64,000 nucleotides of DNA, taken from positions 1 to 64,000 of the IMG/VR virus record IMGVR_UViG_3300031973_001557. The stretch is one strand, 5' to 3'. The notes beneath the pieces are model-generated. The model made no database searches, was not told the origin of the DNA, and saw only the letters and a list, made by a program, of their open reading frames with translations. How positions within the stretch are numbered: position 1 is the stretch's first letter; every line of letters begins with the position of its first letter. The stretch is from a virus. Shown here piece after piece: positions 48,712 through 64,000 of this stretch. Both the position numbers and the translations under genes were made by a program.

Positions 48712-49785
48712 ATGGCAAAAAGTAAAAAGTCTTTGTCCGAGGCCGTGTCTTCGGAGATCAAGTCGAAATTTGATTTAGGTAAGTTTAAACAAAAGAAAGG
48801 ATTAGCAGGAAATGTAAAGTTTAAAGAACAACAATGGATTCCTCTATCTGATGCTTACCAAGATATACTATCAGTACCTGGTATACCAATGGGACATATC
48901 GTTCTACTAAGAGGGCATTCCGATACTGGTAAAACAACAGCTCTACTCGAAGCAGCTGTATCAGCTCAAAAGCGAGGTATACTTCCTGTTATTATCGTAA
49001 CAGAAATGAAATGGAACTGGGAGCATGCTATGCAAATGGGACTAGAAGTAGAAACTGAAGTAGATGAAGAAACTGGTGAAGTAGTTGGTTACTCTGGAAA
49101 CTTTATCTATGTTGATAGAGAAACTCTAAATACTATTGAAGATGTAGCTGCATTCATTATGGATATTATCGATGAGCAGTCTAATGGTAACTTACCTTAT
49201 GATCTTCTTTTCCTATGGGATTCTATCGGAAGTATTCCTTGCGATCTTTCAGTACGCTCTAATAAGAATAATAACGAATGGAATGCAGGAGCAATGTCAA
49301 CTCAATTTGCAAATAATGTAAATCAGAAAATTGTTCTATCTCGTAAAGAGTCATCTAAATTTACTAATACTTTAGTTTGTATTAATAAGGTATGGGCTAT
49401 GAAGCCGGAATCACCAATGGGTCAACCTAAGCTTATGAATAAAGGAGGTTACTCGATGTGGTATGATGCAACATTCGTAGTTACTTTCGGTAATATTATG
49501 TCTGCTGGTACTTCTAAGATTAAAGCAATTAAAGATGGTAAGCAAGTAGAATTTGCTAAACGAGTAAACGTTCAGGTAGAAAAGAATCATATTAATGGTG
49601 TAACTACAAGAGGAAGAATTATTATGACTCCTCATGGATTTATCAAAGATACTCCTACAGCTCTAAATAACTATAAAAAAGCTAGAGCTCAAGAATGGTC
49701 TGATATTATGGGAGGTTCTACTTTTAATATCGTAGAAGAAGAGCACGATCTAACTGATATCTCAACTTACACACAAGAACCCTGA
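48712..49785 (+). CDS. recA: RecA/UvsX recombinase
   Basis: GHSDTGKT Walker A, WDSIGS, KGG, VEKNH. Confidence 0.85.
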   Translation: MAKSKKSLSEAVSSEIKSKFDLGKFKQKKGLAGNVKFKEQQWIPLSDAYQDILSVPGIPMGHIVLLRGHSDTGKTTALLEAAVSAQKRGILPVIIVTEMKWNWEHAMQMGLEVETEVDEETGEVVGYSGNFIYVDRETLNTIEDVAAFIMDIIDEQSNGNLPYDLLFLWDSIGSIPCDLSVRSNKNNNEWNAGAMSTQFANNVNQKIVLSRKESSKFTNTLVCINKVWAMKPESPMGQPKLMNKGGYSMWYDATFVVTFGNIMSAGTSKIKAIKDGKQVEFAKRVNVQVEKNHINGVTTRGRIIMTPHGFIKDTPTALNNYKKARAQEWSDIMGGSTFNIVEEEHDLTDISTYTQEP

Positions 49786-49790
49786 ATTAC

Positions 49791-50822
49791 ATGGAATACT
49801 TGGATATCTTAAATAACATTAACGAAGAGGATCAAGAAATTAGATTAAAACCTCATGATAGAGTTTTAATTATTGATGGCTTGAACTTATTCTTTCGTAA
49901 CTTTGCAACTATTAACTTAACTAATAATAATGGAGCACATATTGGAGGTCTAGGAGGATTTCTAAGATCAATGGGTACTTTGATTAATAAAGTACAACCA
50001 ACTTCAATATATGTTATTTTTGATGGTAAAGGTTCTACTGTAAATAGAAAGAATATAAATCCTGATTATAAAGCAAATAGAAATATCAATAGGATTACTA
50101 ATTGGGATTCATTTGATTCTTTAGAAGATGAGCATGAGTCTAAATTAGATCAACTATTAAGATTAGTTCAATATCTTAAATTACTACCAGTAAAAATATT
50201 ATCTTTTGATAAAGCAGAAGCTGATGATATTATATCAGTTTTATGTAATCAATTATCATACGATAAGAATAAATTATTCATAGTATCATCAGATAAAGAT
50301 TTCCTACAATTAGTAGATGATCATATTGTAGTGTATAGACCTACAGAGAAGAAGTTTTATACTTATGAAGATGTAGAAAGTTCATTTAATATTAAGCCGG
50401 AAAACTTTTTATTATATAAATGCTTACTCGGAGATAATTCCGATAATGTAAAAGGTATAAAAGGTCTCGGTAAAAAAACGCTAGCAAAGAGATTACCTGA
50501 ATTAGCCAATGAGGAAATACATTTAGGTAAGCTTCATAGTATATGTGAAGAGAAATTAACTACTAATATCTCATATGCTAGAATCTTAGATGATTTTAAT
50601 ACTATAGAAAAGAATTATAAGATAATGAATCTTAAAGATCCTATGGTCACCGAACAACAGATTCAGGGAGTAAAAGAAATAATTGCACATAAAGAATTAA
50701 ATTATTACCCTGATGAGTTTGAAAGTTTGCATAATGTTGATAAATTAGGTAATCTGATTAGGAATCCACAACATTGGTTTAATCAGTATTTTAATCAAAT
50801 TTATAAAATTAGTAAACAATGA
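49791..50822 (+). CDS. 5'-3' exonuclease / RNase H (FEN family)
   Basis: IDGLN, FDG, YKANR, EADD, SSDKDFLQL, GDNSDNVKGIKGLG. Confidence 0.93.
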   Translation: MEYLDILNNINEEDQEIRLKPHDRVLIIDGLNLFFRNFATINLTNNNGAHIGGLGGFLRSMGTLINKVQPTSIYVIFDGKGSTVNRKNINPDYKANRNINRITNWDSFDSLEDEHESKLDQLLRLVQYLKLLPVKILSFDKAEADDIISVLCNQLSYDKNKLFIVSSDKDFLQLVDDHIVVYRPTEKKFYTYEDVESSFNIKPENFLLYKCLLGDNSDNVKGIKGLGKKTLAKRLPELANEEIHLGKLHSICEEKLTTNISYARILDDFNTIEKNYKIMNLKDPMVTEQQIQGVKEIIAHKELNYYPDEFESLHNVDKLGNLIRNPQHWFNQYFNQIYKISKQ

Positions 50823-52201
50823 CATTAAGTTCATTAAACGCATATGGAAAGGCTTTTCAGATAAAAGTAATTTCATCATTATTAACACATAAAAAATTCT
50901 TAGTAAATATCTTTGACGTTCTAATCGAAGATTATTTTGATAGCGATGCAAGTAAGTGGGTAATTAAGCAAATTGTTTCTTACTACGAAAAATACCACAC
51001 TACACCCACTATGGATGTACTAAAGGTAGAATTAAATAAGCTAGAAAATGATGTATTAAAATTAGCAGTAAAAGAATTATTAAGAGAAGCATACAAAGCA
51101 TCAGATGAAGATTTAGAATTCGTTCAAGAAGAGTTTTCTAAGTTCTGTCAGAATCAACAACTTAAAGCTGCTCTATTAGAATCAGTTGACTTACTTAAAA
51201 CAGGAGATTATGAATCTATTCAATTCCGGATTAAGAAAGCAATGGAAGCAGGAGGAGATAAGAACGTTGGTCATGAATATAATATTGATGTAGAATCTCG
51301 ATATAGAGAAGATAACAGAACAGTAGTACCAACTCCATGGCCTGTATTTAATGACCTATTACAGGGAGGATTAGGTAACGGCGACTTTGGATTAATCTTT
51401 GGTAATCCTGGTGGTGGTAAATCTTGGTTATTGGTAGCTTTAGGAGCTTATGCTGTAAAAGCAGGATATAATGTTTTGCATTATACTTTAGAATTAGGAG
51501 AGGGATATGTAGGAAAAAGATATGATGCTAGTTTAACAGGTATAAATGTATCTGAAATTAGTTCTAAAGAAAACGTAGCAAAAGTAACTGAAGAAGTAAA
51601 CCAACTACCAGGAAAATTAATTATAAAAGAATATTCACCAGGTATTGCTACCATTGATACTGTAAGAGCTCATATAGAAAAAGTAAAAAACCTCGGCACC
51701 GAACCTGACTTAATAATTATCGACTATGCTGACTTAATGGGGAGCAGAAAGAAAAGTAAAGAACGAAAAGATAGTATAGATGATATTTATCTTAATACCA
51801 AGGGACTTGCAAGAGAACTAAACTTACCTATTTGGTCAGTTTCTCAAGTTAACCGAGCTGGTGCGAAGGATGACATAATTGAAGGAGACAAAGCTGCTGG
51901 ATCATATGATAAGATTATGATTACAGACTTTGCCCTATCTTTGTCACGAAAAAGAGAAGATAAAGTAAATGGAACGGGTCGATTTCATTTGATTAAAAAT
52001 CGATATGGAATGGATGGAATGACCTATGGGGTGAAAGCGGACACCAATGTGGGAAGATTTGATGTATATGATTATGATGAAGATCAAGAATTGACACCAC
52101 GAACCCAACCGACAAGAAATGGAGATCTTGACAGTTATGATAAGAAAATATTAGCTAACGAATTTTTTAAACTTAAAACCAATGGGAATATTCCAACCTA
52201 G
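50819..52201 (+). CDS. dnaB: Replicative DnaB/gp41-like helicase
   Basis: GNPGGGKS, IIIDYAD, SQVNR, KNRYG. Confidence 0.93.
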   Translation: MTLSSLNAYGKAFQIKVISSLLTHKKFLVNIFDVLIEDYFDSDASKWVIKQIVSYYEKYHTTPTMDVLKVELNKLENDVLKLAVKELLREAYKASDEDLEFVQEEFSKFCQNQQLKAALLESVDLLKTGDYESIQFRIKKAMEAGGDKNVGHEYNIDVESRYREDNRTVVPTPWPVFNDLLQGGLGNGDFGLIFGNPGGGKSWLLVALGAYAVKAGYNVLHYTLELGEGYVGKRYDASLTGINVSEISSKENVAKVTEEVNQLPGKLIIKEYSPGIATIDTVRAHIEKVKNLGTEPDLIIIDYADLMGSRKKSKERKDSIDDIYLNTKGLARELNLPIWSVSQVNRAGAKDDIIEGDKAAGSYDKIMITDFALSLSRKREDKVNGTGRFHLIKNRYGMDGMTYGVKADTNVGRFDVYDYDEDQELTPRTQPTRNGDLDSYDKKILANEFFKLKTNGNIPT

Positions 52202-53159
52202 ACCATTTTATAAACCATTTGAATATGGTGATATAACAAACCCTTTAATAGATGCAATGTGGGCATCACACTGGACAGTTAATGAATTTAATTTTACAAA
52301 AGATATACAAGACTTCAATACTAATTTAACTGAAAAAGAAAGACAGGTAGTCAAGCGTGCATTATTAATGATTTCTCAAGTAGAAGTATCAGTTAAAAGT
52401 TATTGGTCTAATGTTGGAAAACTTATACCTAAGCCAGAAATCTCAGAAATGGGATCAGTATTTGGTGGAGTAGAAGTTATACATTCAAGAGCTTATTCGG
52501 AAATTTTAACTAAGTTAGGATTAAACGACGAGTTTAGTACTTTGTTAGATACAGAAATTGTACAAAATAGAGTTAAGTATTTAACAAAATATAATGAAAA
52601 AAATTATGTAGATGATAGAAAAAATATCTATTATTCGTTAGCGTTATTTTCTTTATTTACTGAAAATGTATCTTTATTTTCTCAGTTTTATACTATTTTA
52701 GGATTTAACAGATATTATAATGTATTAAAAGATACTGCAAATGTTGTACAATATACATCAAAAGAAGAAAACTTACATGCAGCAGGTGGTATCGCTATAC
52801 TCAATAAAATTAAAGAAGAATATCCTGAAGTAGTTGATTATGCTATGGAGCTTAAAATATATGAAGAAGCTAAAGAAGCATATGATGCTGAATTAAGACT
52901 TATTGAATGGATATTAGATGGGTATGAAAATGAATTCTTATCTTATGATATATTAAAAACATATTTAGGAATTAGAATGAATGACTCATTAGAAAAGATA
53001 GGATTTGATAAAATGTTTGATGTAGATGAGAATCTAGCTGAAAAAACGTTATGGATGGAAGAGGAAATATATGTTCCTGCCTTAACAGATTTCTTTCATA
53101 AGAAACCTATTGATTATCAAAAAGCTATGAAAAGCTTTGATGCAGGTGAATTATTTTAA
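52182..53159 (+). CDS. nrdB: Ribonucleotide reductase class I beta subunit
   Basis: EVIHSRAY, ENVSLFSQF, EENLH di-metal motifs. Confidence 0.93.
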   Translation: MGIFQPRPFYKPFEYGDITNPLIDAMWASHWTVNEFNFTKDIQDFNTNLTEKERQVVKRALLMISQVEVSVKSYWSNVGKLIPKPEISEMGSVFGGVEVIHSRAYSEILTKLGLNDEFSTLLDTEIVQNRVKYLTKYNEKNYVDDRKNIYYSLALFSLFTENVSLFSQFYTILGFNRYYNVLKDTANVVQYTSKEENLHAAGGIAILNKIKEEYPEVVDYAMELKIYEEAKEAYDAELRLIEWILDGYENEFLSYDILKTYLGIRMNDSLEKIGFDKMFDVDENLAEKTLWMEEEIYVPALTDFFHKKPIDYQKAMKSFDAGELF

Positions 53160-53175
53160 TTTGTAAAACGTAGGA

Positions 53176-54813
53176 ATGTATTGGTTAAATAAACAGTCTA
53201 GGACTTTCTTGGAAAGAGACTATCTTCTTCCAGGTGTAACAGCAGAGCAAAGAATTAAAGAAATCTGCGATCGAGCAGAAAAAATATTAGGTATAAAAGG
53301 ATTTTCGGATAAGTTTCATTCTTATGTTGAGAAAGGATGGTATAGTTTTTCATCACCAGTTTGGTCCAACTTTGGACTAGATAGAGGATTACCTATATCA
53401 TGCTTTGGAATTGATATTCAGGATGATATTATGGATATCTTACGAGCATCATCTGAAATAGGTGCTATGACGAGATATGGAGGAGGAACAGCAGGCTTTT
53501 TCGGTAAGATAAGACCAAGAGGATCTGAGATTAAAAATAATGGTAAGACATCAGGGGCAGTTCACTTTATGGAATTATTCCAAACTATTACTCAAGTTGT
53601 ATCTCAAGGCAGAATGAGAAGAGGATTCTTTGCAGCATACATGCCTATTGATCATGGAGATATAGAAGAGTTTTTAAATTGTCATACTGAAGGACATCCA
53701 ATCCAAGATTTAGCTTTTGCAGTAACTATTCCGGAAGGATGGATGCAATCTATGATTGATGGTGATAAAAATAAAAGAAAATTATGGGCTAAAGTTTTAC
53801 AAAGAAGAGCAGAAAAAGGATACCCATATATTTTCTTTGATGATAATGTAAATAATAATTTACCCCAAGCGTACGAAGATAAAGGATTAAAAATTAATCA
53901 TTCTCAGATGTGTTCAGAAATAATTGAATATACAGATGAAGAAAAATCTTTTGTATGTTGCTTATCTTCTTTAAATTTATTGCATTACGATGATTGGAAA
54001 GATACTGATGCAGTAGAGATGTTAACTTATTTCTTAGATGCTGTTTATACAGAATTTATTGATAAGACAGAAGGAATTCCATTTATGGAAAAAGCTCGTA
54101 AGTTTGCAATCGAGCATCGAAGTATTGGAGTAGGAGTATTAGGGTGGCATTCATACCTACAATCTATTATGATACCGTTTGAAAGTATGGAAGCTAAGCT
54201 ACTTAATACGCAGATCTTTAAATTAATTGATGAAAGAACTTTAAAGGCATCAAAAGAGTTAGCTAAACTATATGGAGAACCTAAAATGTTAGAAGGATAC
54301 GGAGAAAGATTTACTACAAGAGTAGCTCCCGCTCCTACAACTTCTTCTTCATTTATTTTAGGACAAGTATCTCCATCTATAGAACCTTTGTTCTCTAATT
54401 ACTTTGTTAAGGATCTAGCTAAAGGTAAATTTACTTATAAGAACCCTTATCTACAAAAGCTATTAAAGGATAAAGGAATGAATTCAAGTGAGGTTTGGAG
54501 GTCAATTATGTCAAAAGGAGGTTCGGTACAACACTTGGATTTCTTAACTGAAAGAGAAAAATTTGTATTTAAAACTTTTGGAGAAATTACCCCATTAGAG
54601 ATTATTCAACAGGCAGCAGGAAGACAGAAATATATTGATCAATCACAATCTTTGAACTTAGTTATCCATCCAGATGCAAGTCTAAAAGATGTAAATGCAT
54701 TATATATTGAAGCTTGGAAATTAGGATTAAAAACTCTATATTATCAAAGGTCTTCTAATCTAGCACAAGAAACTTCACGGAATATTATGGATTGTGCTAG
54801 TTGCCAAGCATAA
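53176..54813 (+). CDS. nrdA: Ribonucleotide reductase class I alpha subunit (no ATP cone)
   Basis: PISCF, GGG, QMCSEI, CCLSS, APT..SS, TLYY, C-terminal CASC. Confidence 0.93.
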   Translation: MYWLNKQSRTFLERDYLLPGVTAEQRIKEICDRAEKILGIKGFSDKFHSYVEKGWYSFSSPVWSNFGLDRGLPISCFGIDIQDDIMDILRASSEIGAMTRYGGGTAGFFGKIRPRGSEIKNNGKTSGAVHFMELFQTITQVVSQGRMRRGFFAAYMPIDHGDIEEFLNCHTEGHPIQDLAFAVTIPEGWMQSMIDGDKNKRKLWAKVLQRRAEKGYPYIFFDDNVNNNLPQAYEDKGLKINHSQMCSEIIEYTDEEKSFVCCLSSLNLLHYDDWKDTDAVEMLTYFLDAVYTEFIDKTEGIPFMEKARKFAIEHRSIGVGVLGWHSYLQSIMIPFESMEAKLLNTQIFKLIDERTLKASKELAKLYGEPKMLEGYGERFTTRVAPAPTTSSSFILGQVSPSIEPLFSNYFVKDLAKGKFTYKNPYLQKLLKDKGMNSSEVWRSIMSKGGSVQHLDFLTEREKFVFKTFGEITPLEIIQQAAGRQKYIDQSQSLNLVIHPDASLKDVNALYIEAWKLGLKTLYYQRSSNLAQETSRNIMDCASCQA

Positions 54814-54821
54814 ACAATAGT

Positions 54822-55904
54822 ATGAGAAAATTATTTAACTTTTTAGGAAAAGCTATCTTTCCTACTCTGATTGCAGTAACCGCTTTAGCCATTTCAGGTT
54901 CAGCGGCTACTTTTTCAGTAATTGGATTATCAAAATTATTTGCTGGAGCTTCATTAGCTGTTATTATAATGACAGGAACTTTAGAAGCATCTAAATTAGT
55001 AGTAGCATCATTACTACATCAATATTGGTCTGACTTAAATAGATTACTTAAAATATATTTAACTTTAGCAGTTGTAATACTAATTATCATTACTTCAATG
55101 GGTATTTATGGTTATTTATCTGCTGCATATCAAGAAACAGCTAATAAAGAAGGTATCACTCAAAAAGAGTTAGCTATATATGATTCTAAGATAGAGAATT
55201 ATAAAAAACAAAAATCTTCAAGAGAACAAACAGCTAATTCCGTTCAAGAAAGAATCACTCAACTAAACGAAGGCATTAATAATATTGAATATAGTTGGGT
55301 AGATAGAGATGGAGCAGGAGATCAAAGAGAATTATTATCTACTCAATTAGAAATAGCTAATAAGGAATATCTAAGAGTTAGTAATGATATTTCAAAATTA
55401 GATTCTACTATTTTAGCATTAGAGAATGAAAGATTTGAAACTGAAATTAGCTCTGATGTAGCAGCCGAATTAGGACCTTTAAAATATATTAGTAAAATCT
55501 CAGGATGGGAGATGGATAAGACAGTTAATGTTCTTATCTTAATTATTGTATTTGTATTTGATCCTTTAGCTATATGTTTGGTACTTGCAGCTAATTTTGC
55601 GTTCGGAAAGGCATTTCCAAAAAAAAGAGAAAATATTTACGGTGAAAAGGTAGTTATAACTCAAACACCTATAGTTGAATTAGAAGCTGAACCAGAGGAT
55701 CTTCCAGATTTACAAGAAAATAAATTTAATCCTGAAAGAGAAAAAATTGAAAAAGAAATAGAAGAAATAGAAAATGAACAAATTAAATTAGCGCAAAGCA
55801 CGGCATCAGGTCGAGCTATTCACGCAGCTAGTGAAGAATTAAAAGAAAGGAAAAAAATTTTAAAAAAACAATTAAATAATGATGATAATAGTATTACTTA
55901 TTAA
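54822..55904 (+). CDS. Membrane protein with coiled coil
   Basis: Three N-terminal TM segments, a coiled coil and a VFDPLAI TM segment; ATG at 54822 preferred. Confidence 0.75.
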   Translation: MRKLFNFLGKAIFPTLIAVTALAISGSAATFSVIGLSKLFAGASLAVIIMTGTLEASKLVVASLLHQYWSDLNRLLKIYLTLAVVILIIITSMGIYGYLSAAYQETANKEGITQKELAIYDSKIENYKKQKSSREQTANSVQERITQLNEGINNIEYSWVDRDGAGDQRELLSTQLEIANKEYLRVSNDISKLDSTILALENERFETEISSDVAAELGPLKYISKISGWEMDKTVNVLILIIVFVFDPLAICLVLAANFAFGKAFPKKRENIYGEKVVITQTPIVELEAEPEDLPDLQENKFNPEREKIEKEIEEIENEQIKLAQSTASGRAIHAASEELKERKKILKKQLNNDDNSITY

Positions 55905-55934
55905 CTATTTTTCGTATATTTAATTAAAATAGTT

Positions 55935-56390
55935 ATGAGACATATTTACGATAGAGAAGTTATAGAAAAGAATCTAAAAAGATTAAAACCATTAAATTAT
56001 AATAGATTTATGTGGTGGCGTAGTCATACTAGAAAGAATAAGCTTCTAAGTAATTATGCACCTCTTATTCAAAGAATTAAGAATGGTGATTACGATCACA
56101 GTATTTACTTCTGGCAAGCTCAATTAGCTACTCTTAATTATAATGAAAGATATCAAGCTAATATTGGTAGTGGTCAAGGAGATGATAAACTAAGCTTAAT
56201 GGCTGAACGTTGTAAGAGATTATGGGAAGACTTTGAGAAAGATGAAGCAAAACTATTAGTTGAGATACGTAAGGAGTTTTGTAAACTATTTAGAATAAGT
56301 ATTAAAGCTTATGAAAGAGTAATGGATGAGTTTGATGGTACTTTAGAAGACCTTTACTATTATTGTGAAAAAAAATATAAGAATGACTAA
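55935..56390 (+). CDS. Hypothetical protein
   Basis: 151-aa ORF after the promoter-like TTTTCGTATATTTA at 55909. Confidence 0.7.
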   Translation: MRHIYDREVIEKNLKRLKPLNYNRFMWWRSHTRKNKLLSNYAPLIQRIKNGDYDHSIYFWQAQLATLNYNERYQANIGSGQGDDKLSLMAERCKRLWEDFEKDEAKLLVEIRKEFCKLFRISIKAYERVMDEFDGTLEDLYYYCEKKYKND

Positions 56391-56580
56391 ATTAGGTATA
56401 AATAAAGGTCCACATAGAGAAGATAGAGTCTTACAGAATACATATTTCGAAGAAGAATTAAATATATTATTTTCTAGAATAAGAGATAATGGAGTTAATT
56501 TAACGAAAAATGATATGAAGTATTTAGAATATTTAGGTAATAAAACAGTTAATGATAATTTAAAACAAGAAAATGAGTAA
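56383..56580 (+). CDS. Hypothetical protein
   Basis: ATG at 56383; overlaps both neighbours. Confidence 0.55.
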   Translation: MTKLGINKGPHREDRVLQNTYFEEELNILFSRIRDNGVNLTKNDMKYLEYLGNKTVNDNLKQENE

Positions 56581-57385
56581 AAATGTTGTAATTAGTCTTT
56601 CTGGAGGGATGGACTCCTCTACTTTATTAATCCATGCTTTAAAAGAAGGATTTAATGTAACTGCAGTATCTTTTGATTACGGTCAAAAGCATCGTGTAGA
56701 ACTTGAAAGAGCTCAGTCTTTAATTGATTATATTAATCTAACCAGATTGAATGAACCAAACATCAAGTATCAAGTAATTAAATTAGATGGTCTTCCAGAT
56801 CTACTTAACTCAGCTCTAGTATCAGGAGGAGAAGAAGTACCGGAAGGACATTATGCAGAAGAAAATATGAAAGCTACGGTAGTACCTAATCGTAATAAAA
56901 TCTTTTCTTCTATAACTCAAGCTATTGCTCTCTCAATGTATAAAGCAAATAATCTACCAACTTATATTGGAATGGGTATTCATGCAGGTGATCACGCAAT
57001 TTATCCCGACTGTAGAGAAGAATTTAGAGATGCAGATCTAGCTACTTTTAAATTAGGAAACTGGGATGCTGATAATATCGAATATTATACTCCGTTTATT
57101 AATGATGATAAGTATGGTATTTTACAAGCAGGAGAAGTTGCTTGTTTTGAATTAGGATTAGATTTTAATGAAGTATATTCTCGAACGAATACTTCATATA
57201 AACCTATTCAAATAGATAAAGAATGGTATTCTGATTATAAATCAGCTTCTTCTGTAGAACGTATCGAAGCATTTATTAAGTTAGGAAAAAAAGATCCTGT
57301 AAGATATGCTGACGAAACAGGAGTAGTACATTGGCAGAAAGCTAAAGCTCACGTACAAGAAGTATTATTAAATTATAATACATAA
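56573..57385 (+). CDS. queC: 7-cyano-7-deazaguanine synthase
   Basis: SGGMDS, FDYGQKH, VPNRN, YPDCR. Confidence 0.95.
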   Translation: MSKNVVISLSGGMDSSTLLIHALKEGFNVTAVSFDYGQKHRVELERAQSLIDYINLTRLNEPNIKYQVIKLDGLPDLLNSALVSGGEEVPEGHYAEENMKATVVPNRNKIFSSITQAIALSMYKANNLPTYIGMGIHAGDHAIYPDCREEFRDADLATFKLGNWDADNIEYYTPFINDDKYGILQAGEVACFELGLDFNEVYSRTNTSYKPIQIDKEWYSDYKSASSVERIEAFIKLGKKDPVRYADETGVVHWQKAKAHVQEVLLNYNT

Positions 57386-57390
57386 TATTA

Positions 57391-57534
57391 ATGAAAGAAT
57401 TTATATATCATATGCTAGGATTATGCGGGGAATCACATCCTTCCTTACTATCTTTACTTATGATAGGGATTACTCCATTTATTTTTATGTATAAAAAAAT
57501 AATAAATTATGTCAAAAAAATTTTTATCAAGTAA
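57391..57534 (+). CDS. Small hydrophobic protein (47 aa), absent from the ORF track
   Basis: MKEFIYHMLGLCGESHPSLLSLLMIGITPFIFMYKKIINYVKKIFIK fills the queC-queD gap. Confidence 0.55.
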   Translation: MKEFIYHMLGLCGESHPSLLSLLMIGITPFIFMYKKIINYVKKIFIK

Positions 57535-57979
57535 AATATATGATGGGTATTCTACTTGTTTTCGACAATGGAAAGCAACAGATACACACTGTCAATATTT
57601 ACATGGATACTCAGTATCTCTTAAAATAACATACGAAGGTGAACTCGATGATAAAAATTGGGTAGTAGATTTTGGCAGAGCTAAAAGATCCAATATAGAA
57701 ATCGACGGTATGAAAGTAAAAGAATGGTTATCATATATGTTAGATCATACTGTAATAGTAGCAGAGGATGACCCATTTTTAGAAGCTTTTAAACAAATGG
57801 ATAAAGTAGGAGCAGCTCGAGTAAGAGTTATTCCTGCTGTAGGAGCAGAAAAATTTGCTGAGTATTTTTATAATAAATTAAATGATTGGGTAAAAGAAGA
57901 TACTAATAATCGATGTAAAATAGTATCAGTAGAAGTTAGAGAACACGAAAAAAATAGTGCAATATATTATGGAGAATAA
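57509..57979 (+). CDS. queD: 6-carboxy-5,6,7,8-tetrahydropterin synthase
   Basis: HCQYLHGY, VVDFG, LDH, GAE, VREHEKNSA. Confidence 0.9.
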   Translation: MSKKFLSSKIYDGYSTCFRQWKATDTHCQYLHGYSVSLKITYEGELDDKNWVVDFGRAKRSNIEIDGMKVKEWLSYMLDHTVIVAEDDPFLEAFKQMDKVGAARVRVIPAVGAEKFAEYFYNKLNDWVKEDTNNRCKIVSVEVREHEKNSAIYYGE

Positions 57980-58787
57980 AATTAGAATAGCTCATGAAGC
58001 ACCTATGTCAATATTTGATAAGGTACAACAGCTAACAGATTACGATTATTGTTTAGTTCATTTAATGGATGAAATTCCGGAATATAAAGAAATATTTTTT
58101 AAAGCTAAAAAACAAGGCAGAGAAATTATTTTAGATAATAGTATTTTTGAATTAGGTAAATCATTTAATAATAAAAAATATTATCATTGGGTAACTGAAC
58201 TAGAACCAACATGGTATATTATTCCAGATGTATTAGAAGATTGCGATAAAACGATTGATAAAGCAAAAAGATGGCTATCAAAATATCCTGATATTAAAAG
58301 TAAATCTATTGGTGTAGTTCAAGGTAAAACATATGAAGAAATAGTTAAATGTTATAAATTTATGGTGGAGGAAGCTAAGGTAGATAAAGTAGCTATTTCA
58401 TTTGATTATTCATATTATTTAAATACTTACGAAAGTTTAGGATCAAATAAATATGAAAGATTTACAATTGGTAGAGCATGCTTAATAGATCAAATGATCG
58501 AGGACAAAGTTATTGACTATAGTATCCCAGTTCATCTATTAGGCTGCGGTTTACCACAAGAAGGAGCATTCTATAAAGAAGATCCTGAACGATACTTTTT
58601 TATAGATTCTGTAGATACATCTAATCCTATAGTGCATGGTATAAAAAATGTACAATATACAAAATATGGATTAAAAGATAAAGAATCACAAAAATTATTT
58701 ACTATGATAAATTATAAATTAAATTCTCAAATATGGGATTTAATAGAATATAATACTAAAGCATTTAAAAATTTATGGAATGCATAA
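57969..58787 (+). CDS. dpdA: TGT-fold deazaguanine transglycosylase (DpdA-like)
   Basis: IILDNS, PDVLED, GVVQG, HLLG and SVDTS motifs; inside the que operon. Confidence 0.75.
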   Translation: MENKIRIAHEAPMSIFDKVQQLTDYDYCLVHLMDEIPEYKEIFFKAKKQGREIILDNSIFELGKSFNNKKYYHWVTELEPTWYIIPDVLEDCDKTIDKAKRWLSKYPDIKSKSIGVVQGKTYEEIVKCYKFMVEEAKVDKVAISFDYSYYLNTYESLGSNKYERFTIGRACLIDQMIEDKVIDYSIPVHLLGCGLPQEGAFYKEDPERYFFIDSVDTSNPIVHGIKNVQYTKYGLKDKESQKLFTMINYKLNSQIWDLIEYNTKAFKNLWNA

Positions 58788-59331
58788 AAGATGGATCGCA
58801 ATGTTCTCGCAAACTGGAAGCGAGCTTATAGAAGTAATTAATGCTCTAGATAGAGAACCTGATATTATTATAACTAATAAAAGACCTGAACATTTAAGAA
58901 GTATTAATCAAGATTTATTAGATAGATGCAGAAATAAAATTTGTTATGTATCTAACAAACCAACACTAGAAGAATATTATGGAATATTTGAACGATTTGT
59001 TTTTAATCCTATTGTTACTCTCCACGGCTGGTTAAGAGTATTGCCGCCGGAAATATGTAGGAGTTATGAAATTTATAATGGTCACCCAGGAGATATAATT
59101 AAATATCCAAAATTAAAAGGAAAGGATCCACAGTTAAAAGCTTGGAAAAAAAATTATAAATTTATAGGAACAGTATTGCATAAGGTAATTGAACAGGTAG
59201 ATGAAGGAGAAATTATAGCTTATAAAAATAAAATTCCTACTAGAAATTTGGAACTTGATGATTATTTTCGTATATTAAGAAACGAGTCGATAGGCTTATG
59301 GATACAATTTTTGAATAAAAGGTTATACTAA
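58780..59331 (+). CDS. PurN-like formyltransferase (DpdN-like preQ1 formyltransferase)
   Basis: FSQTGS, IITN, GWLRVL, YNGHPG, H.V...VDEG.I. Confidence 0.8.
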   Translation: MHKRWIAMFSQTGSELIEVINALDREPDIIITNKRPEHLRSINQDLLDRCRNKICYVSNKPTLEEYYGIFERFVFNPIVTLHGWLRVLPPEICRSYEIYNGHPGDIIKYPKLKGKDPQLKAWKKNYKFIGTVLHKVIEQVDEGEIIAYKNKIPTRNLELDDYFRILRNESIGLWIQFLNKRLY

Positions 59332-59885
59332 TGAAAATAGCATTTACAGGAGCTCAGGGAACGGGTAAATCTACTTTAGTTAATTATCTTGCAGATAATA
59401 ATGTTAAAGAAATAGAAGAATATACTTTTGTAAAAGAAGTAACAAGAAGAATACAAAGACAATTTAATCTTGATATTAATGAGAAAGGAGATCTGACTAC
59501 TCAGATACTAATTATTACAGATCATATTGTAAATTTACGTAAACCAAAAGTAGTAATGGATAGATGTATTTTAGATGCATTAGTCTATACTCGATGGTTA
59601 TGTGATTATAATCCTGGTATTCCTAACTGGGTTTATGATTATTGTGAAAATGTATTTAAAAGTTATATTAATCAATATGACATTATATTTTATTTAAAGC
59701 CTGAATTTGATCTGGTTAGTGATGGTGTGAGAAGTGATGATATAGACTTTAGAGATGATATAGCAGATTTATTTGAAACCTACATAAATAATTTTGGTGT
59801 AGAAGTTGTGGAATTAACAGGTACGGTAAAACAAAGAGTTAAACAAATTAAAAAAGCAATTAATGAGCACACAAAGTCAAATTAA
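59331..59885 (+). CDS. P-loop nucleoside monophosphate kinase-like protein (AAA_28-type)
   Basis: GAQGTGKST, MDRCILD, DGVR. Confidence 0.8.
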   Translation: MKIAFTGAQGTGKSTLVNYLADNNVKEIEEYTFVKEVTRRIQRQFNLDINEKGDLTTQILIITDHIVNLRKPKVVMDRCILDALVYTRWLCDYNPGIPNWVYDYCENVFKSYINQYDIIFYLKPEFDLVSDGVRSDDIDFRDDIADLFETYINNFGVEVVELTGTVKQRVKQIKKAINEHTKSN

Positions 59886-60780
59886 TGATATAGCGGGAAC
59901 GCTATTAGGTAAAAGAGGAGGAGAAGGTTATTCAACAACTTATGATTCTTCTTTATTAGTTCGTATTCCTAGATCTTTAAATCGAGAAACTTATCGAATT
60001 GATAATAAAAATCTTCCGTTTATAGGAGGAGATGTCTGGAACGCATACGAAGTATCAGCTATTACTAATACTGGAAGACCAGTATCAGGAGTAATGAAGA
60101 TATGGTGTGATGCAGATTCTAAATATCACGTTGAATCTAAGTCAATTAAACTATATCTTAATTCCTTTAATATGACTCCTTTTGGGGAAACAGGAGAAGA
60201 ATGTATTAAGATTATTGAGGATACCGTATCAGAAGATTTATCAACTTTATTAGAAACAGAAGTTGAATGTAAATTATTTACAAGAAATGATAGTCTTAAT
60301 TTTGATGTCTTTAGTGATTATGATGAACTAGAAGATTTAGTAGATTTAGATAAAGTAGATTATTCTAATGATAAATTAGAAAAATTAGATATTACCAAAG
60401 CATCGTTTAAAGATTTTAATCCTAGATTAAAAGTTCGTACTAATCTTTTAAGAAGTAATTGTCGAGTAACTAATCAACCAGACTGGGGTGACTTATTTAT
60501 TTTTATTAAAGGTAATGAGAAGGATAGTGTATTTACTCTAGATAGTCTAGCAAGCTATATTGTTTCTCATAGACAAGTTAATCACTTTCATGAAGAGATC
60601 GTAGAAATGATCTTTAAAAAATTATACGATGAATTTAATCCTAAAGAACTAATGGTATGTGCAATGTATACTCGAAGAGGAGGGATTGATATTAATCCTA
60701 TTCGATCTACTCATGAGCATTTAATTCCTGGTGCATTTAGAACTATGAATAGCTTAACTCAAAAAACATTACGTCAATAA
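59863..60780 (+). CDS. queF: NADPH-dependent preQ0 reductase (bimodular QueF)
   Basis: WNAYE, VESKSIKLYLNSF, SNCRVTNQPDWG, FHE, YTRRGGIDINP. Confidence 0.95.
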   Translation: MSTQSQINDIAGTLLGKRGGEGYSTTYDSSLLVRIPRSLNRETYRIDNKNLPFIGGDVWNAYEVSAITNTGRPVSGVMKIWCDADSKYHVESKSIKLYLNSFNMTPFGETGEECIKIIEDTVSEDLSTLLETEVECKLFTRNDSLNFDVFSDYDELEDLVDLDKVDYSNDKLEKLDITKASFKDFNPRLKVRTNLLRSNCRVTNQPDWGDLFIFIKGNEKDSVFTLDSLASYIVSHRQVNHFHEEIVEMIFKKLYDEFNPKELMVCAMYTRRGGIDINPIRSTHEHLIPGAFRTMNSLTQKTLRQ

Positions 60781-61556
60781 TGAAATGTAAAAGATTAAGA
60801 AGTTACGAAAAACCTTTACAGGTATTAGAGCTTTATACTGCAGTTCAATCTGAAGGTTCAAGACAAGGTTACCCTACTATTGTAGTTAGAACATCAGGAT
60901 GTACTCATAGATGCTTCTTTGGTGAAGGTGGATGGTGTGATAGTTGGTATACATCTATTCATCCGGAAAAAGGTACTTTCTGTTTTAATGACATTATCAA
61001 AATGTATGATGATAATCCTCATATAAAAGAGATGATGTTAACTGGGGGATCTCCTACTATGCACCCTGCTTTAGTAAATGAATTAACTCATTTTGCTCAT
61101 GAGCGAGGAATCTTTATTACTATTGAAACAGAAGGATCTCATTTTTTAGAAACTGATTATCCTATTAATCTATTATCTATTTCACCTAAATTTAGTAATT
61201 CTATTCCAGTAGTAGGAGCTAAAACACCGCTAGGAGAGATAGTAGATGAGAAGATGATCATCAAACATAACAGTAAACGATTGAATAAAGAAGCAATCAA
61301 AGCTTCTATTGAATATCATAATGATTATCATATTAAACCAGTATTAGATAAAGATTTAACTATTCTTCCGGAAGTAGAGGAGTTTGTTAAAGAGTTAGAG
61401 ATACCAGATGAAAAGATTTGGTGTATGCCTGCTGGAGATGATATTCCTGCTCTACAAGAATCCTATCCTGTAGTAATGAACTTTGTTAGAGATAGAGGAT
61501 GGAGATTTACAGGTAGAAGTCATATTATGGCTTTTGGTACAGAAAGATGTGTTTAA
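60780..61556 (+). CDS. queE: 7-carboxy-7-deazaguanine synthase (radical SAM)
   Basis: QSEG...G.P...RTSGCTHRC..(insert)..WCDS, LTGG, IETEG, SISPK. Confidence 0.92.
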   Translation: MKCKRLRSYEKPLQVLELYTAVQSEGSRQGYPTIVVRTSGCTHRCFFGEGGWCDSWYTSIHPEKGTFCFNDIIKMYDDNPHIKEMMLTGGSPTMHPALVNELTHFAHERGIFITIETEGSHFLETDYPINLLSISPKFSNSIPVVGAKTPLGEIVDEKMIIKHNSKRLNKEAIKASIEYHNDYHIKPVLDKDLTILPEVEEFVKELEIPDEKIWCMPAGDDIPALQESYPVVMNFVRDRGWRFTGRSHIMAFGTERCV

Positions 61557-61572
61557 TATTTAAAATAAAATT

Positions 61573-62598
61573 ATGCAAGATAACAGAAATAAGGAAAAAA
61601 AATATGAGTGGATCGGAGATGTTAAATCTTATAAGGAACCGGAAGATAATGAATATTCGGTAAAATATAATGAACCGGATAGAGAATATGATGCTACTTA
61701 TAGACCTACAAAAGCTGATATCGAGACATTTCCTGATCTTCAAAATGGACCTTCATCTTTGATTCAAGGAAGTCCTGTAGAGATCCAACAAGTAGGTATT
61801 CATAATTTTAGATTACCTCTTAAGTATGAAAAGCGTGGAGGAGGGGATATTGAATTAGAAACTCGAGTAACCGGAACAGTATCCTTAGCAGCTCATAAGA
61901 AAGGAATTAATATGTCTCGTATTATGAGATCTTTCTATAAGTTTAAAGATGATTACGTATATGATAAGTTAGATGATATTCTAATGAAGTATAAAGATAA
62001 TCTAGATTCATTTGATGCTAAGATTGGATTACATTTTTCTTATCCTATTTTACAACCTTCTTTAAGATCAAATAATGCTGGTTATCAATATTATAATGTA
62101 ACTTTAGAAGGTAATATTGATTATACAGGTAATTTTAAAAAGATCTTACATTTTGATTTTGTTTATTCTTCTGCTTGTCCTTGTTCGTATGAATTAGCCG
62201 AGCATGCAAGAAAGTATAGAAATAAAGCAACAGTATCTCATTCTCAAAGATCGGTAGCTAGAATATCAATAGAGTTTGATAAAATTGTATGGATAGAAGA
62301 TCTACAAGAGATGTGTGCTAAAGCTCTTAAGACCGAAACTCAAGTAGTTGTAAAGAGAGAAGACGAAATGGCCTTTGCTGAACTTAATGGTTCTTATCTC
62401 AAATTTGTAGAAGATGCCGCTCGATTATTATACGAACAATTATCCGAAGATAAAAGAGTAAAAGATTTTAGAGTAATATGCTCTCATCAAGAGTCTCTAC
62501 ACTCTCACGATGCAATATCGGTTATAACAGCACCAAACAGCAAGTTTAGTCAAGATATATCACATGAGGTATGGTCCAGTTTAATTCATATTTCGTAA
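61573..62598 (+). CDS. folE2: GTP cyclohydrolase I type B
   Basis: PDLQ, VGI, KGINMSR, SACPCS, HSQRS, VKREDE, FVEDAAR, ESLHSHDA. Confidence 0.93.
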   Translation: MQDNRNKEKKYEWIGDVKSYKEPEDNEYSVKYNEPDREYDATYRPTKADIETFPDLQNGPSSLIQGSPVEIQQVGIHNFRLPLKYEKRGGGDIELETRVTGTVSLAAHKKGINMSRIMRSFYKFKDDYVYDKLDDILMKYKDNLDSFDAKIGLHFSYPILQPSLRSNNAGYQYYNVTLEGNIDYTGNFKKILHFDFVYSSACPCSYELAEHARKYRNKATVSHSQRSVARISIEFDKIVWIEDLQEMCAKALKTETQVVVKREDEMAFAELNGSYLKFVEDAARLLYEQLSEDKRVKDFRVICSHQESLHSHDAISVITAPNSKFSQDISHEVWSSLIHIS

Positions 62599-62671
62599 AA
62601 AAGATTTATTAAAAAGGTAGAAAAGTCGAAGAAAAATCGCTATCTTAAGAATATAATTAGAATAAATATAT

Positions 62672-63172
62672 ATGCAATATAAATATAGTAGAAGAGATGA
62701 TTATGTACCGTTTGTATCCGAGGTAGAACAATTTAATGAAGCCTTTAATAAGCCTAACAAGTATATTCCTAATGTTCCCGAAAAAGAACAATGGATGTTT
62801 GTGTATAACTTTATCTTAGAGGAGTTAAATGAGTATAAAGAAGCATGCGAGAGAGGGGATGTAGTAGAGGTCTTAGATGCATTAGCCGATATTACTTATG
62901 TTGCAACCGGAAATGGTGTAATGCTACATGGTCTTAAAGATCATTTTGAAGCAGCTTATGAAGAAGTACATCAATCAAATATGTCTAAGTTGTGTAAGAC
63001 TTTAGAGGAAGCCGAACAGACGCGCGACCTGCGGTCCGAACAACAAGGTGAACCATGTCATATTGAACAAAGAGATGATTACTGGGTAGTATTAAGAAGT
63101 AGTGATCGTAAGGTCATGAAGTCGGTTAACTATTTCCCACCAAATTTAAGCGCGATATTAAATGAGCAGTAA
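62672..63172 (+). CDS. MazG-like all-alpha nucleotide pyrophosphohydrolase
   Basis: EELNEY...EVLDALAD..YV...EVHQSNMSK. Confidence 0.85.
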   Translation: MQYKYSRRDDYVPFVSEVEQFNEAFNKPNKYIPNVPEKEQWMFVYNFILEELNEYKEACERGDVVEVLDALADITYVATGNGVMLHGLKDHFEAAYEEVHQSNMSKLCKTLEEAEQTRDLRSEQQGEPCHIEQRDDYWVVLRSSDRKVMKSVNYFPPNLSAILNEQ

Positions 63173-64000
63173 GGAGCAATTAGTACTACCTTACAAAAAG
63201 TGTTATGCAGAAAAAGGTAGAGGGAATAACTATACTATTCACTTATGGGATGATGGTGGATATAATCAATTAGATTGGCGTAATTATGCTTACAAAGAAT
63301 CTGATTATGGTGAGTATGAAGGTTTCCGAGGTGAGAAGTTAGATAAAGTGTATCAATGGGATTATGATGATAAGACTATTCATTATCATGATATGCAACC
63401 GGCTCAAAAGTTTCTGATCGAAACCTACGGTACTAATGATGAGCCTTCGACTTCACATAAAGAATTATTTTTCGATATTGAGATTGAGATTGGTGGACGA
63501 TTAACTCAAGAGTACATCCGTCAAGCTCCAATGCCTTGTACTTCTATTGCTTGGTATGATAAGTTTAGAGATAAGTGGGGTATCTTGATTTTAGATAAGC
63601 AAGGTAAAATGCAATACTCTGAAAAGGGTAATAAAGAGATTATACCTGTTCGTACAGAAAAAGAGTTACTTGCTAAATGGGTTGAACGTATTAGAGAAAT
63701 CGATCCAGATATCTTAATCGGATATAATAGTGATCATTTCGATATTCCTTATTTATATTTTCGTATCTGTAATGTATTAGGAGAGGAATGGGCTATGGCT
63801 ATGTCTCCTATTAATATTGCAAGAGATATATCTCAATGGTCTAGAGAACGTACTATTGAGTTTGCCGGTTTAGAAACTTTAGATTACTTACGACTACATA
63901 AGCAGTTCTCTATGAGAGAAGAACCTTCTTATAAGTTAGATGCTATTGGAGAGAAGTATGCTGGGTTAGGTAAGATTGAGTATGAAGGATCTCTTAATCG
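63162..64000 (+). CDS. Family B DNA polymerase, N-terminal and 3'-5' exonuclease part (3'-truncated)
   Basis: ATG at 63162, open to the window end; ExoI FFDIEIE, ExoII GYNSDHFDIPYL, SYKLDAIGE. Confidence 0.92.
   Translation, partial: MSSKEQLVLPYKKCYAEKGRGNNYTIHLWDDGGYNQLDWRNYAYKESDYGEYEGFRGEKLDKVYQWDYDDKTIHYHDMQPAQKFLIETYGTNDEPSTSHKELFFDIEIEIGGRLTQEYIRQAPMPCTSIAWYDKFRDKWGILILDKQGKMQYSEKGNKEIIPVRTEKELLAKWVERIREIDPDILIGYNSDHFDIPYLYFRICNVLGEEWAMAMSPINIARDISQWSRERTIEFAGLETLDYLRLHKQFSMREEPSYKLDAIGEKYAGLGKIEYEGSLN

Follow-up and report, generated by a model that had tools for sequence, protein, structure and literature searches.

The window analysed here is the first 64 kb (positions 1 to 64,000) of IMG/VR virus record IMGVR_UViG_3300031973_001557, a sequence of 72,415 bases rated 45% complete. 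Its last part carries a cluster of ten genes that includes a DpdA3-type transglycosylase, a DpdN-type formyltransferase and a P-loop kinase-like protein of the AAA_28 family. The genes lie head to tail on the + strand from position 56573, with several stop/start overlaps, and fill a compact 7.4 kb without inserted small open reading frames (ORFs) (Table 1). This order, together with the family matches, confirms an initial annotation that had named the same ten genes as contiguous on one strand. The full route to preQ1 is encoded, since a GTP cyclohydrolase, QueD, QueE, QueC and QueF were all found; QueD and QueE score below the NCBIfam cut-offs, and QueE also below that of Pfam, and both are strong in PHROGs. 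The main result, that a kinase-like gene accompanies the DpdA3 family in every informative locus examined, bears on the question of how a base-exchange enzyme can attain 100% substitution.

Table 1. Genes of the deazaguanine cluster in the window, with the ribonucleotide reductase genes that precede it
Gene product	Coordinates	Strand	Family matches
QueC, 7-cyano-7-deazaguanine synthase, makes preQ0	56573-57385	+	PF06508 E 1.4e-37; phrog_1550 E 1.3e-44
QueD, 6-carboxytetrahydropterin synthase	57509-57979	+	PTPS PF01242 E 7.8e-16; phrog_2389 E 6e-42
DpdA3-type guanine/7-deazaguanine transglycosylase, tRNA-guanine transglycosylase (TGT)-fold TIM barrel, no zinc motif	57957-58787	+	phrog_19058 E 2.7e-52
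DpdN-type PurN-like formyltransferase	58780-59331	+	PF00551 28.9 bits (cut-off 26.1)
AAA_28 P-loop nucleoside/nucleotide kinase-like	59331-59885	+	PF13521 E 5.1e-20; phrog_2107 'thymidylate kinase' E 3e-36
QueF, bimodular, preQ0 to preQ1	59863-60780	+	QueF_N PF14819 E 1.4e-30; PF14489 E 5.6e-22; TIGR03138 E 5e-72
QueE, radical SAM 7-carboxy-7-deazaguanine synthase	60780-61556	+	phrog_2076 E 2.9e-49; TIGR03365 E 2.2e-14 (below cut-off)
FolE2, GTP cyclohydrolase IB, first step from GTP	61573-62598	+	PF02649 E 9.4e-70; NF010200 270.4 bits (cut-off 215)
MazG/PRA-PH-like all-alpha nucleoside triphosphate pyrophosphohydrolase	62672-63172	+	PF01503 E 1.2e-10; phrog_671 E 3e-31
Family B DNA polymerase (PolB), N-terminal part in window	63162-64000	+	PF03104 E 8.2e-18; whole ORF PF00136 E 2.1e-25
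Ribonucleotide reductase (RNR), beta and alpha; deoxynucleotide supply	52182-53159 (beta), 53176-54813 (alpha)	+	PF00268 E 1.1e-46; TIGR02510 755.8 bits

The DpdA3-like protein has 272-276 amino acids (aa) and no Pfam or NCBIfam match. The ORF listing starts it at the GTG at 57957; the true start is likely the ATG at 57969, which is the start in the Atlas record and in most homologues. It is 51.5% identical, over 97% of the query, to the protein called 'DNA guanine transglycosylase' in Flavobacterium phage immuto_2-6A, and 40-42% identical to proteins in 14 Campylobacter phage records of the CP220 group (40% for CP220 itself). Identity to CGPG_00065 of Cellulophaga phage phiST is 22.5% (E 0.02), and a DpdA3 profile reaches phiST at E 8e-14. 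An AlphaFold2 model made from 28 homologues (pLDDT 90.5, pTM 0.89) retrieved only TGTs among the top 50 Foldseek matches (E from 4e-9), and VIA comparison with TGT structures gave Z 17.3-18.4 and a root-mean-square deviation of 2.9-3.4 Å over 234-239 residues. As modelled, DpdA3 has the TGT-type (beta/alpha)8 catalytic fold. At the sequence level, hhalign paired the DpdA3 profile with E. coli Tgt at 46% probability (E 2e-4), with DpdA2 of Salmonella phage 7-11 at 83% over 57 columns and with DpdA1 of phage 9g at only 0.2%. The canonical TGT profile PF01702, which matched 14 of 14 control genomes, gave no match anywhere in this record with an E limit of 10. A search of PDB sequences with the 28-sequence profile returned at best a pyrophosphatase (E 0.067), which we rejected as a chance match.

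Five residues are invariant in the 28 sequences: D60 (LDNS), D91 (PD), Q122 (VVQG), G196 (LLGCG) and D220 (DTSNP). For comparison, we take the catalytic and base-pocket residues of TGT to be Asp102, Asp156, Gln203, Gly230 and Asp280 (Z. mobilis numbers). The hhalign alignment to E. coli Tgt pairs VVQG with IIQG and LLGCG with LMGVG and places D220 off by 4 residues, and we infer that the invariant DpdA3 motifs are shaped like the TGT catalytic and base-pocket motifs. Canonical TGT carries a C-terminal zinc-binding CxCxxC...H subdomain. No cysteine follows D220 in the window protein, and the only invariant or nearly invariant cysteines of the 28 sequences are C132 and C197; because no cysteine cluster follows D220, the TGT-type zinc subdomain appears to be absent.

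The DpdA3 family comprises 3347 clusters at 90% identity and 3095 at 50% identity. A survey of the 150 best of these 3095 cluster representatives found fusions to DpdN in two, to a NUMOD3 homing-endonuclease-like part in one and to a weak GNAT domain in one; the longer forms are four proteins, three of them DpdA3::QueF and one with an unassigned N-terminal part. Through the natural fusions with QueF and DpdN, DpdA3 is linked both to preQ1 as a base and to the formylation step. Both kinds are metagenomic proteins, of 531-568 aa for DpdA3::QueF (P0122-P0124) and 447 aa for DpdA3::DpdN (P0190 and P0233).

The DpdN-type protein is a bare 183-aa PurN-type catalytic domain, in which an added nucleic-acid-binding domain was not seen. 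It is 51.7% identical over 97% to the YP_010114479 region of immuto_2-6A, the sole match among 50,697 phage records, and its motifs NGHPG (N-x-H-P) and VDEGE are kept in 54 unique homologues; N-x-H...D are the catalytic residues of the PurN-type Formyl_trans_N domain. Because DpdA3 and DpdN are both about 52% identical to the immuto_2-6A proteins, the cluster is best seen as a further example of the known DpdA3/DpdN kind, and its prediction as a formyl-preQ1 DNA modification system, making 7-formylaminomethyl-7-deaza-deoxyguanosine (fdPreQ1), is supported. The initial annotation had arrived at the same operon type, and its statement that fdPreQ1 and a DpdN had been reported for a Flavobacterium phage was correct (Cui et al. 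2023, PMC10516641). That paper also gave DpdA3 and DpdN their names, and its table for immuto_2-6A DNA lists fdPreQ1 at 345,000 per 10^6 nucleotides and deoxy-preQ1 (dPreQ1) at 0, with the deoxyguanosine (dG) peak gone. By homology to this phage with measured DNA, the genome studied here is probably fully G-substituted. Full substitution, together with a DpdA3, is also given in that paper for CP220, with 7-amido-7-deaza-deoxyguanosine (dADG), and for phiST, with 7-deaza-deoxyguanosine (dDG) (PMC10516641).

We consider it very improbable that the cluster leaves phage DNA unmodified and boosts queuosine precursors for host or phage tRNA, a role that Hutinet 2019 raises for phages with preQ0 genes but no DpdA. 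Against it stand the closeness of DpdA3 and DpdN to the proteins of a phage whose DNA was measured to contain fdPreQ1, the absence of tRNA genes from the window and the lack of any PF01702 match in the record.

Other acyl-transfer genes occur in relatives that lack DpdN, placed between DpdA3 and QueF. Two near-identical loci (L034:6123-7079 and L022:8816-9772) have the AAA_28 kinase fused to a probable GNAT domain (E 0.0023, below cut-off), another (L048:3327-4853) encodes a GNAT protein of 508 aa (E 2.4e-11) next to a glyoxalase-fold protein, and a fourth (L082:2905-4857) a weak Amidoligase_2-like protein and a 147-aa GNAT. Judging by these genes, the relatives may make N-acetyl or other, undescribed N-acyl preQ1 bases. 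In a T4-like relative, a gene for a membrane transporter of the Vut_1/YhhQ type (L044:11478-12086, E 2.6e-20) comes directly after QueC, inside the deazaguanine cluster; YhhQ is a queuosine-precursor transporter.

The likeness to immuto_2-6A extends beyond DpdA3 and DpdN: an AAA_28 kinase (35% identity), QueF, QueC, QueD, QueE and a PRA-PH/MazG-like protein are all present there, and the core follows the same order of DpdA3, DpdN, AAA_28 kinase and QueF, with a small ORF inserted after DpdA3 in immuto, unlike in the window. The two also differ in that immuto has a type I FolE and a family A polymerase where the window has FolE2 and PolB, and in that its MazG gene lies directly upstream of DpdA3 rather than downstream of the GTP cyclohydrolase. 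A homologue of the phosphoribosyltransferase of immuto was sought in this record (72 kb, rated 45% complete) and not found.

The window's kinase-like protein also resembles the ribosylnicotinamide-kinase region of NadR (TIGR01526, E 5.2e-7, below cut-off), and a search of PDB sequences gave nothing informative (best SMG-9, E 0.08). The invariant residues of the AAA_28 kinases are G7, G12, K13, T15, R39, D77, R78 and D82, among which we liken D77-R78 to the DR motif of thymidylate kinase (TMPK)-type enzymes. Co-occurrence of a kinase-like gene with this DpdA subfamily, suggested as a check in the initial annotation, was positive in each set of loci, 73 of 73, 39 of 39 and 14 of 14.

The first set comes from the best 80 of 469 confirmed candidate DpdA3 loci in IMG/VR, whose ORFs were searched iteratively. 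A kinase-like gene was found in all 73 informative loci, AAA_28 in 52 and DUF3310 in 21, and never both; the two occupy one slot, between DpdN and QueF. In the other seven, where neither was seen, the sequence breaks off within 1.5 kb downstream of DpdA3. The nucleotide kinase gp1.7 of T7 has DUF3310 as its single Pfam domain (E 4.5e-23), and relatives have the DUF3310 ORF exactly at the position of the window's AAA_28 gene, whereas the window itself has no DUF3310 gene.

A second DpdA3-like clade, 26% identical to the window protein, was found via Rhizobium phage RHph_I1_18, in which the DpdA3-like part and a DUF3310 domain are joined in one 422-aa ORF, a true fusion. The DpdA3-like part was recognized in 39 of 50 related IMG/VR loci, and DUF3310 follows it directly, on the same strand and abutting or overlapping, in 39 of 39. 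Two loci of this Rhizobium-phage-like clade (L097:2989-4263 and L098:1-1257) have the DpdA3-like part and DUF3310 in the same frame with a single stop codon between them.

The third set is that of the Campylobacter phages, whose 14 records all have an AAA_28 kinase (39-41% identity) starting about 57 bases downstream of the DpdA3 gene. CP220, a Firehammervirus whose G is reportedly replaced in full (Cui et al. 2023), shares with the window a DpdA3 followed by this kinase (41%), but has no QueF or DpdN, and an HD+AAA_33 protein takes the place of MazG. Unlike in the window, the HD+AAA_33 protein, DpdA3 and the kinase of CP220 stand between the tail sheath and tail tube genes, and the DpdA3-kinase pair is 45-55 kb from QueC and FolE.

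Three further phages have other P-loop proteins beside DpdA3. The order in phiST is FolE, MazG, DpdL, an AAA_18 P-loop protein and DpdA3; an AAA_18/AAA_33 protein lies immediately ahead of the DpdA3-like gene in Chryseobacterium phage MA9V-3, and Bacillus phage BSTP12 has a protein with Walker A and DR motifs in the same place. The phiST protein, CGPG_00066 (L086:6457-6936), directly precedes DpdA3 and matches AAA_18 at E 9.4e-7, with 29.8 bits against a cut-off of 29.4; Cui et al. 2023 (PMC10516641) leave its function unassigned and give it no homologues in other deazaguanine phages. Phage 9g served as a control. Its DpdA1, like bacterial DpdA of the Dpd islands, belongs to the same superfamily by fold and likewise uses a preQ0-type free base from FolE, QueD, QueE and QueC, but modification by these enzymes is partial, reaching up to about 30% of G (PMC10516641), and the 50 kb searched of the 56.7 kb of phage 9g gave no such kinase, DUF3310 or MazG.

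The kinase is not a bystander of DpdA3, because a kinase-like gene accompanies this family in every informative locus, drawn from three unrelated families and joined to it in one fusion. The tie takes three forms, namely adjacency, replacement in the same slot and one fusion. We did not find this pattern in the literature searched, and neither the main text of Cui et al. 2023 nor that of Hutinet 2019 contains the word 'kinase'. As far as these searches reach, the kinase pattern is new; the cluster, for its part, adds a compact member to the kind of fdPreQ1 system published in 2023.

Instead of being a small-molecule kinase, the P-loop protein could in principle drive the action of DpdA3 on duplex DNA as an ATPase, in the manner of DpdB, which we take to be an ATPase, for bacterial DpdA. 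We regard this as improbable. Bacterial DpdA is described as requiring DpdB (PMC10164549), and several lineages have the P-loop gene close against DpdA3. The gene is, on the other side, replaceable by a DUF3310 protein, which lacks a P-loop and whose relatives include a known deoxynucleoside monophosphate (dNMP) kinase. The P-loop proteins match the AAA_28, NadR-kinase, deoxynucleoside kinase and TMPK-type families and not the ParB-like DpdB, and the invariant D77-R78 pair resembles a motif of TMPK-type kinases.

We lean towards the view that the guanine exchange is made on a deoxyguanosine nucleotide before replication. On a more specific form of this we are evenly divided: DpdA3 would be the first TGT-superfamily enzyme to exchange the base of a free deoxynucleotide, deoxyguanosine monophosphate (dGMP) plus a deazaguanine base giving the deaza-dNMP plus guanine, and complete 7-deazaguanine genomes would be made pre-replicatively by way of a dNMP kinase. 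Whether this kinase role is filled interchangeably by AAA_28, AAA_18 or gp1.7-like DUF3310 proteins, so that exchange on dGMP covers fdPreQ1, dADG and dDG genomes alike, is in our estimate a matter that could go either way.

In such a scheme, FolE2, QueD, QueE and QueC would convert GTP to preQ0 and QueF would reduce preQ0 to preQ1, as in the known pathway, and DpdN would formylate the aminomethyl group, either on preQ1 itself or on the nucleotide that contains it. DpdA3, as a stripped-down TGT-fold enzyme, would replace guanine by the deazapurine before replication, the acceptor most likely being dGMP, and the adjoining AAA_28 kinase would phosphorylate the modified dNMP. A host nucleoside diphosphate kinase would finish the triphosphate, and any polymerase that tolerates 7-deaza-dGTP analogues could incorporate it. 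The MazG-like enzyme may turn dGTP into dGMP, eliminating the competing nucleotide and supplying DpdA3 with substrate at the same time; of all the steps this is the least secure.

The alternative with the strongest case, which is the published view and which we nevertheless hold to be less likely, is that the genome is copied with dGTP and DpdA3 then replaces every guanine in the DNA by preQ1 or formyl-preQ1. Both neighbours would then serve the general nucleotide pool, the kinase as a (d)GMP kinase recycling guanine nucleotides, released or derived from the host, to GTP for FolE2 and to dGTP for replication, and the MazG-like protein as a dUTPase. Several findings left unexplained by exchange in finished DNA argue for exchange at the nucleotide level. 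The kinase keeps with DpdA3 and not with the GTP-consuming genes, as in CP220, where the pair is so distant from FolE and QueC. Three unrelated kinase-type families occupy one position, and the second clade couples the DpdA3-like part to DUF3310 in one fusion and 39 abutting or overlapping gene pairs. Since the 7-substituents differ among the three fully substituted phages (amido, H and formylaminomethyl), the shared kinase target would most simply be the sugar-phosphate end, that is, the deoxyribose 5'-phosphate.

The reported DNA compositions point in the same direction: both the loss of dG and the formylation are complete in immuto_2-6A, whereas the post-replicative methylation of phiSM, in the same table of the paper (PMC10516641), is partial. 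In that study, the ADG nucleoside was found in the cytoplasm of CP220-infected cells, and DpdA3 activity was not obtained in the authors' E. coli test of DNA modification, a result that weighs only slightly. Polymerases are stated in Hutinet 2019 to tolerate 7-substituted 7-deazaguanine nucleotides. A DpdN reduced to its catalytic domain, with no nucleic-acid-binding addition seen, also speaks against exchange in finished DNA. The idea of a nucleotide-level route is not wholly new: a modified-dGTP route had earlier been 'proposed for Campylobacter phages', in the wording of Hutinet 2019, and was dropped in 2023 upon the finding of DpdA3 (PMC10516641).

A number of observations weigh against exchange on a free nucleotide, and several of them favour exchange in finished DNA. 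The fold of DpdA3 is that of enzymes acting on polynucleotides; the characterized members of the TGT/DpdA superfamily all exchange bases in tRNA or DNA, and none is known to do so on a free nucleotide. Those who named DpdA3 propose post-replicative insertion (PMC10516641), and a paper of December 2025 still gives deazaguanine as the example of modification at the nucleic-acid level. No later mechanistic study of DpdA3 and no nucleotide-level deazaguanine route was found in the literature searched. Kinases of the gp1.7 and TMPK types are described as doing general dNMP salvage in T7-like phages, and the phosphoribosyltransferase near FolE in immuto could salvage the released guanine.

The kinase pattern itself has limits. 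A quick tree of 62 unique DpdA3 sequences, leaving out duplicates and fragments under 240 aa, needs about three changes to explain the alternation of AAA_28 and DUF3310, two of them forced by well-supported branches; the 21 DUF3310 loci therefore stand for few events. The stand-alone DUF3310 ORFs, putative kinases of 82-122 aa, align solely with the last third of gp1.7, its conserved C-terminal core, and are without its N-terminal 120 residues. A DUF3310 ORF also precedes DpdA2 of Salmonella phage 7-11 and of its twin, though not of two 40%-identical relatives, and the DNA of phage 7-11 is reported to contain only about 0.02% dADG; such a neighbour alone therefore does not mean full replacement. 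No fusion of DpdA3 with a kinase was present among the 150 best representatives and the four longer proteins.

The MazG-like protein and the polymerase are less constant companions. Of the 64 IMG/VR loci whose upstream flank reaches 2 kb or more, 44 have MazG; among 48 long-flanked loci, kinase and MazG occur together in 38, kinase only in 4, neither in 6 and MazG only in 0. A short PRA-PH gene was seen in just 3 of the 8 loci of the DUF3310 type that extend 5 kb or more downstream. Among PDB sequences, the nearest to the MazG-like protein is DR2231 (E 0.033, a weak match), presumably a dUTP-specific, dUTPase-type MazG. The canonical dUTPase PF00692 was not found in this record, at 45% completeness, nor in immuto or phiST, and it was found in CP220, which is without MazG. 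Since MazG-carrying phages thus lack the canonical dUTPase, removal of dGTP is only one of two live readings, and the protein may be a phage dUTPase, a dGTPase or both. T4 gp56, for instance, acts on both dCTP and dUTP. The phiST protein was scored as dUTPase or MazG by Cui et al. (PMC10516641).

A PolB homologue lies within 8 kb in just 2 of the 80 loci, and a family A polymerase stands in its place in immuto and BSTP12, so PolB, which the initial annotation had incorporating the analogue, is no conserved companion of the cluster. Its suggestion that MazG removes dGTP retains the presence of a MazG-like gene and is weakened by the inconstancy of this neighbour and its leaning towards the dUTPase type. 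The broader proposal of pre-replicative G replacement gained from the kinase coupling, and lost ground in that the MazG link is weak and the adjacency of PolB is not conserved.

Should exchange on the nucleotide be correct, the system would resemble the hydroxymethyl-deoxycytidine (hmC) system of T4 and that of 2-aminoadenine phages in combining a base change at the dNMP level, a phage dNMP kinase, a dNTP hydrolase of the MazG or HD type and complete substitution. The T4 set consists of gp42, the gp1 kinase and the gp56 dCTPase, and the 2-aminoadenine set includes MazZ and DatZ; the shared logic is to modify at the dNMP, re-phosphorylate and exclude the canonical dNTP. The PurZ pathway of the latter phages is described in PMC12783734. 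The difference is that here the whole base would be exchanged by a transglycosylase, and there is no homology to gp42 or PurZ. If the exchange is indeed made on dGMP, the TGT fold would gain a new type of reaction, the pre-replicative replacement of DNA bases would have a fourth class, and 7-substituted 7-deaza-dGTPs, synthetic nucleotides in wide use, could be made enzymatically.

Within the cluster, the FolE2 gene deserves mention, as 0 of the 80 related IMG/VR loci had a homologue of it. A relative whose DpdA3 is 95% identical to that of the window (L004) has a type I FolE in the same slot instead (L004:11659-12342; 227 aa, PF01227 E 5e-44), against 341 aa for FolE2. The two unrelated GTP cyclohydrolases are cleanly swapped, the flanking end of QueE and start of MazG being nearly identical.

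The PolB gene extends past the window to contig base 64883. Its ORF (contig 63162-64883) is short, at 573 aa, with a polymerase-domain match confined to profile positions 24-202 of 453, and is followed by a 926-aa ORF (contig 64919-67699) without a family match; the cluster polymerase may be split or very divergent.

The genomic setting is that of a myovirus, identified by terminase, portal, capsid, sheath and tube genes that form a structural module in the rest of the window. G+C is about 30%, and every long ORF lies on one strand. A replication and nucleotide block precedes the cluster, with genes for a single-stranded DNA-binding protein, a UvsX-like recombinase, a flap nuclease, a DnaB-type helicase and RNR beta and alpha, of which the last three kinds (RNR, helicase and flap nuclease) lie immediately upstream of it. 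A megablast search with the cluster region gave zero matches among the 50,697 phage records, and promoter and terminator scans of positions 49000-64000 gave chance-level counts (85 against 84.6, and 4 against 3.7).

Homing-endonuclease-like genes (HNH, NUMOD3) flank DpdA3 or are fused with it in relatives (L048:935-1735, L048:2555-3280 and P0129), and a homing endonuclease lies just upstream of the HD/DpdA3/kinase trio of CP220. At the other end of the window, the part of an ORF at 701-2479 was considered as a relative of CP220 gp055 (HD plus P-loop) and rejected, the similarity being confined to the P-loop. The ORF as a whole (2-2479), open at the window start, joins a Zeta-toxin/AAA_33-type P-loop kinase domain to a C-terminal part resembling 5'(3')-deoxyribonucleotidase (phrog_2643, E 1.9e-24), and may encode a polynucleotide kinase-phosphatase or another nucleotide-pool enzyme.

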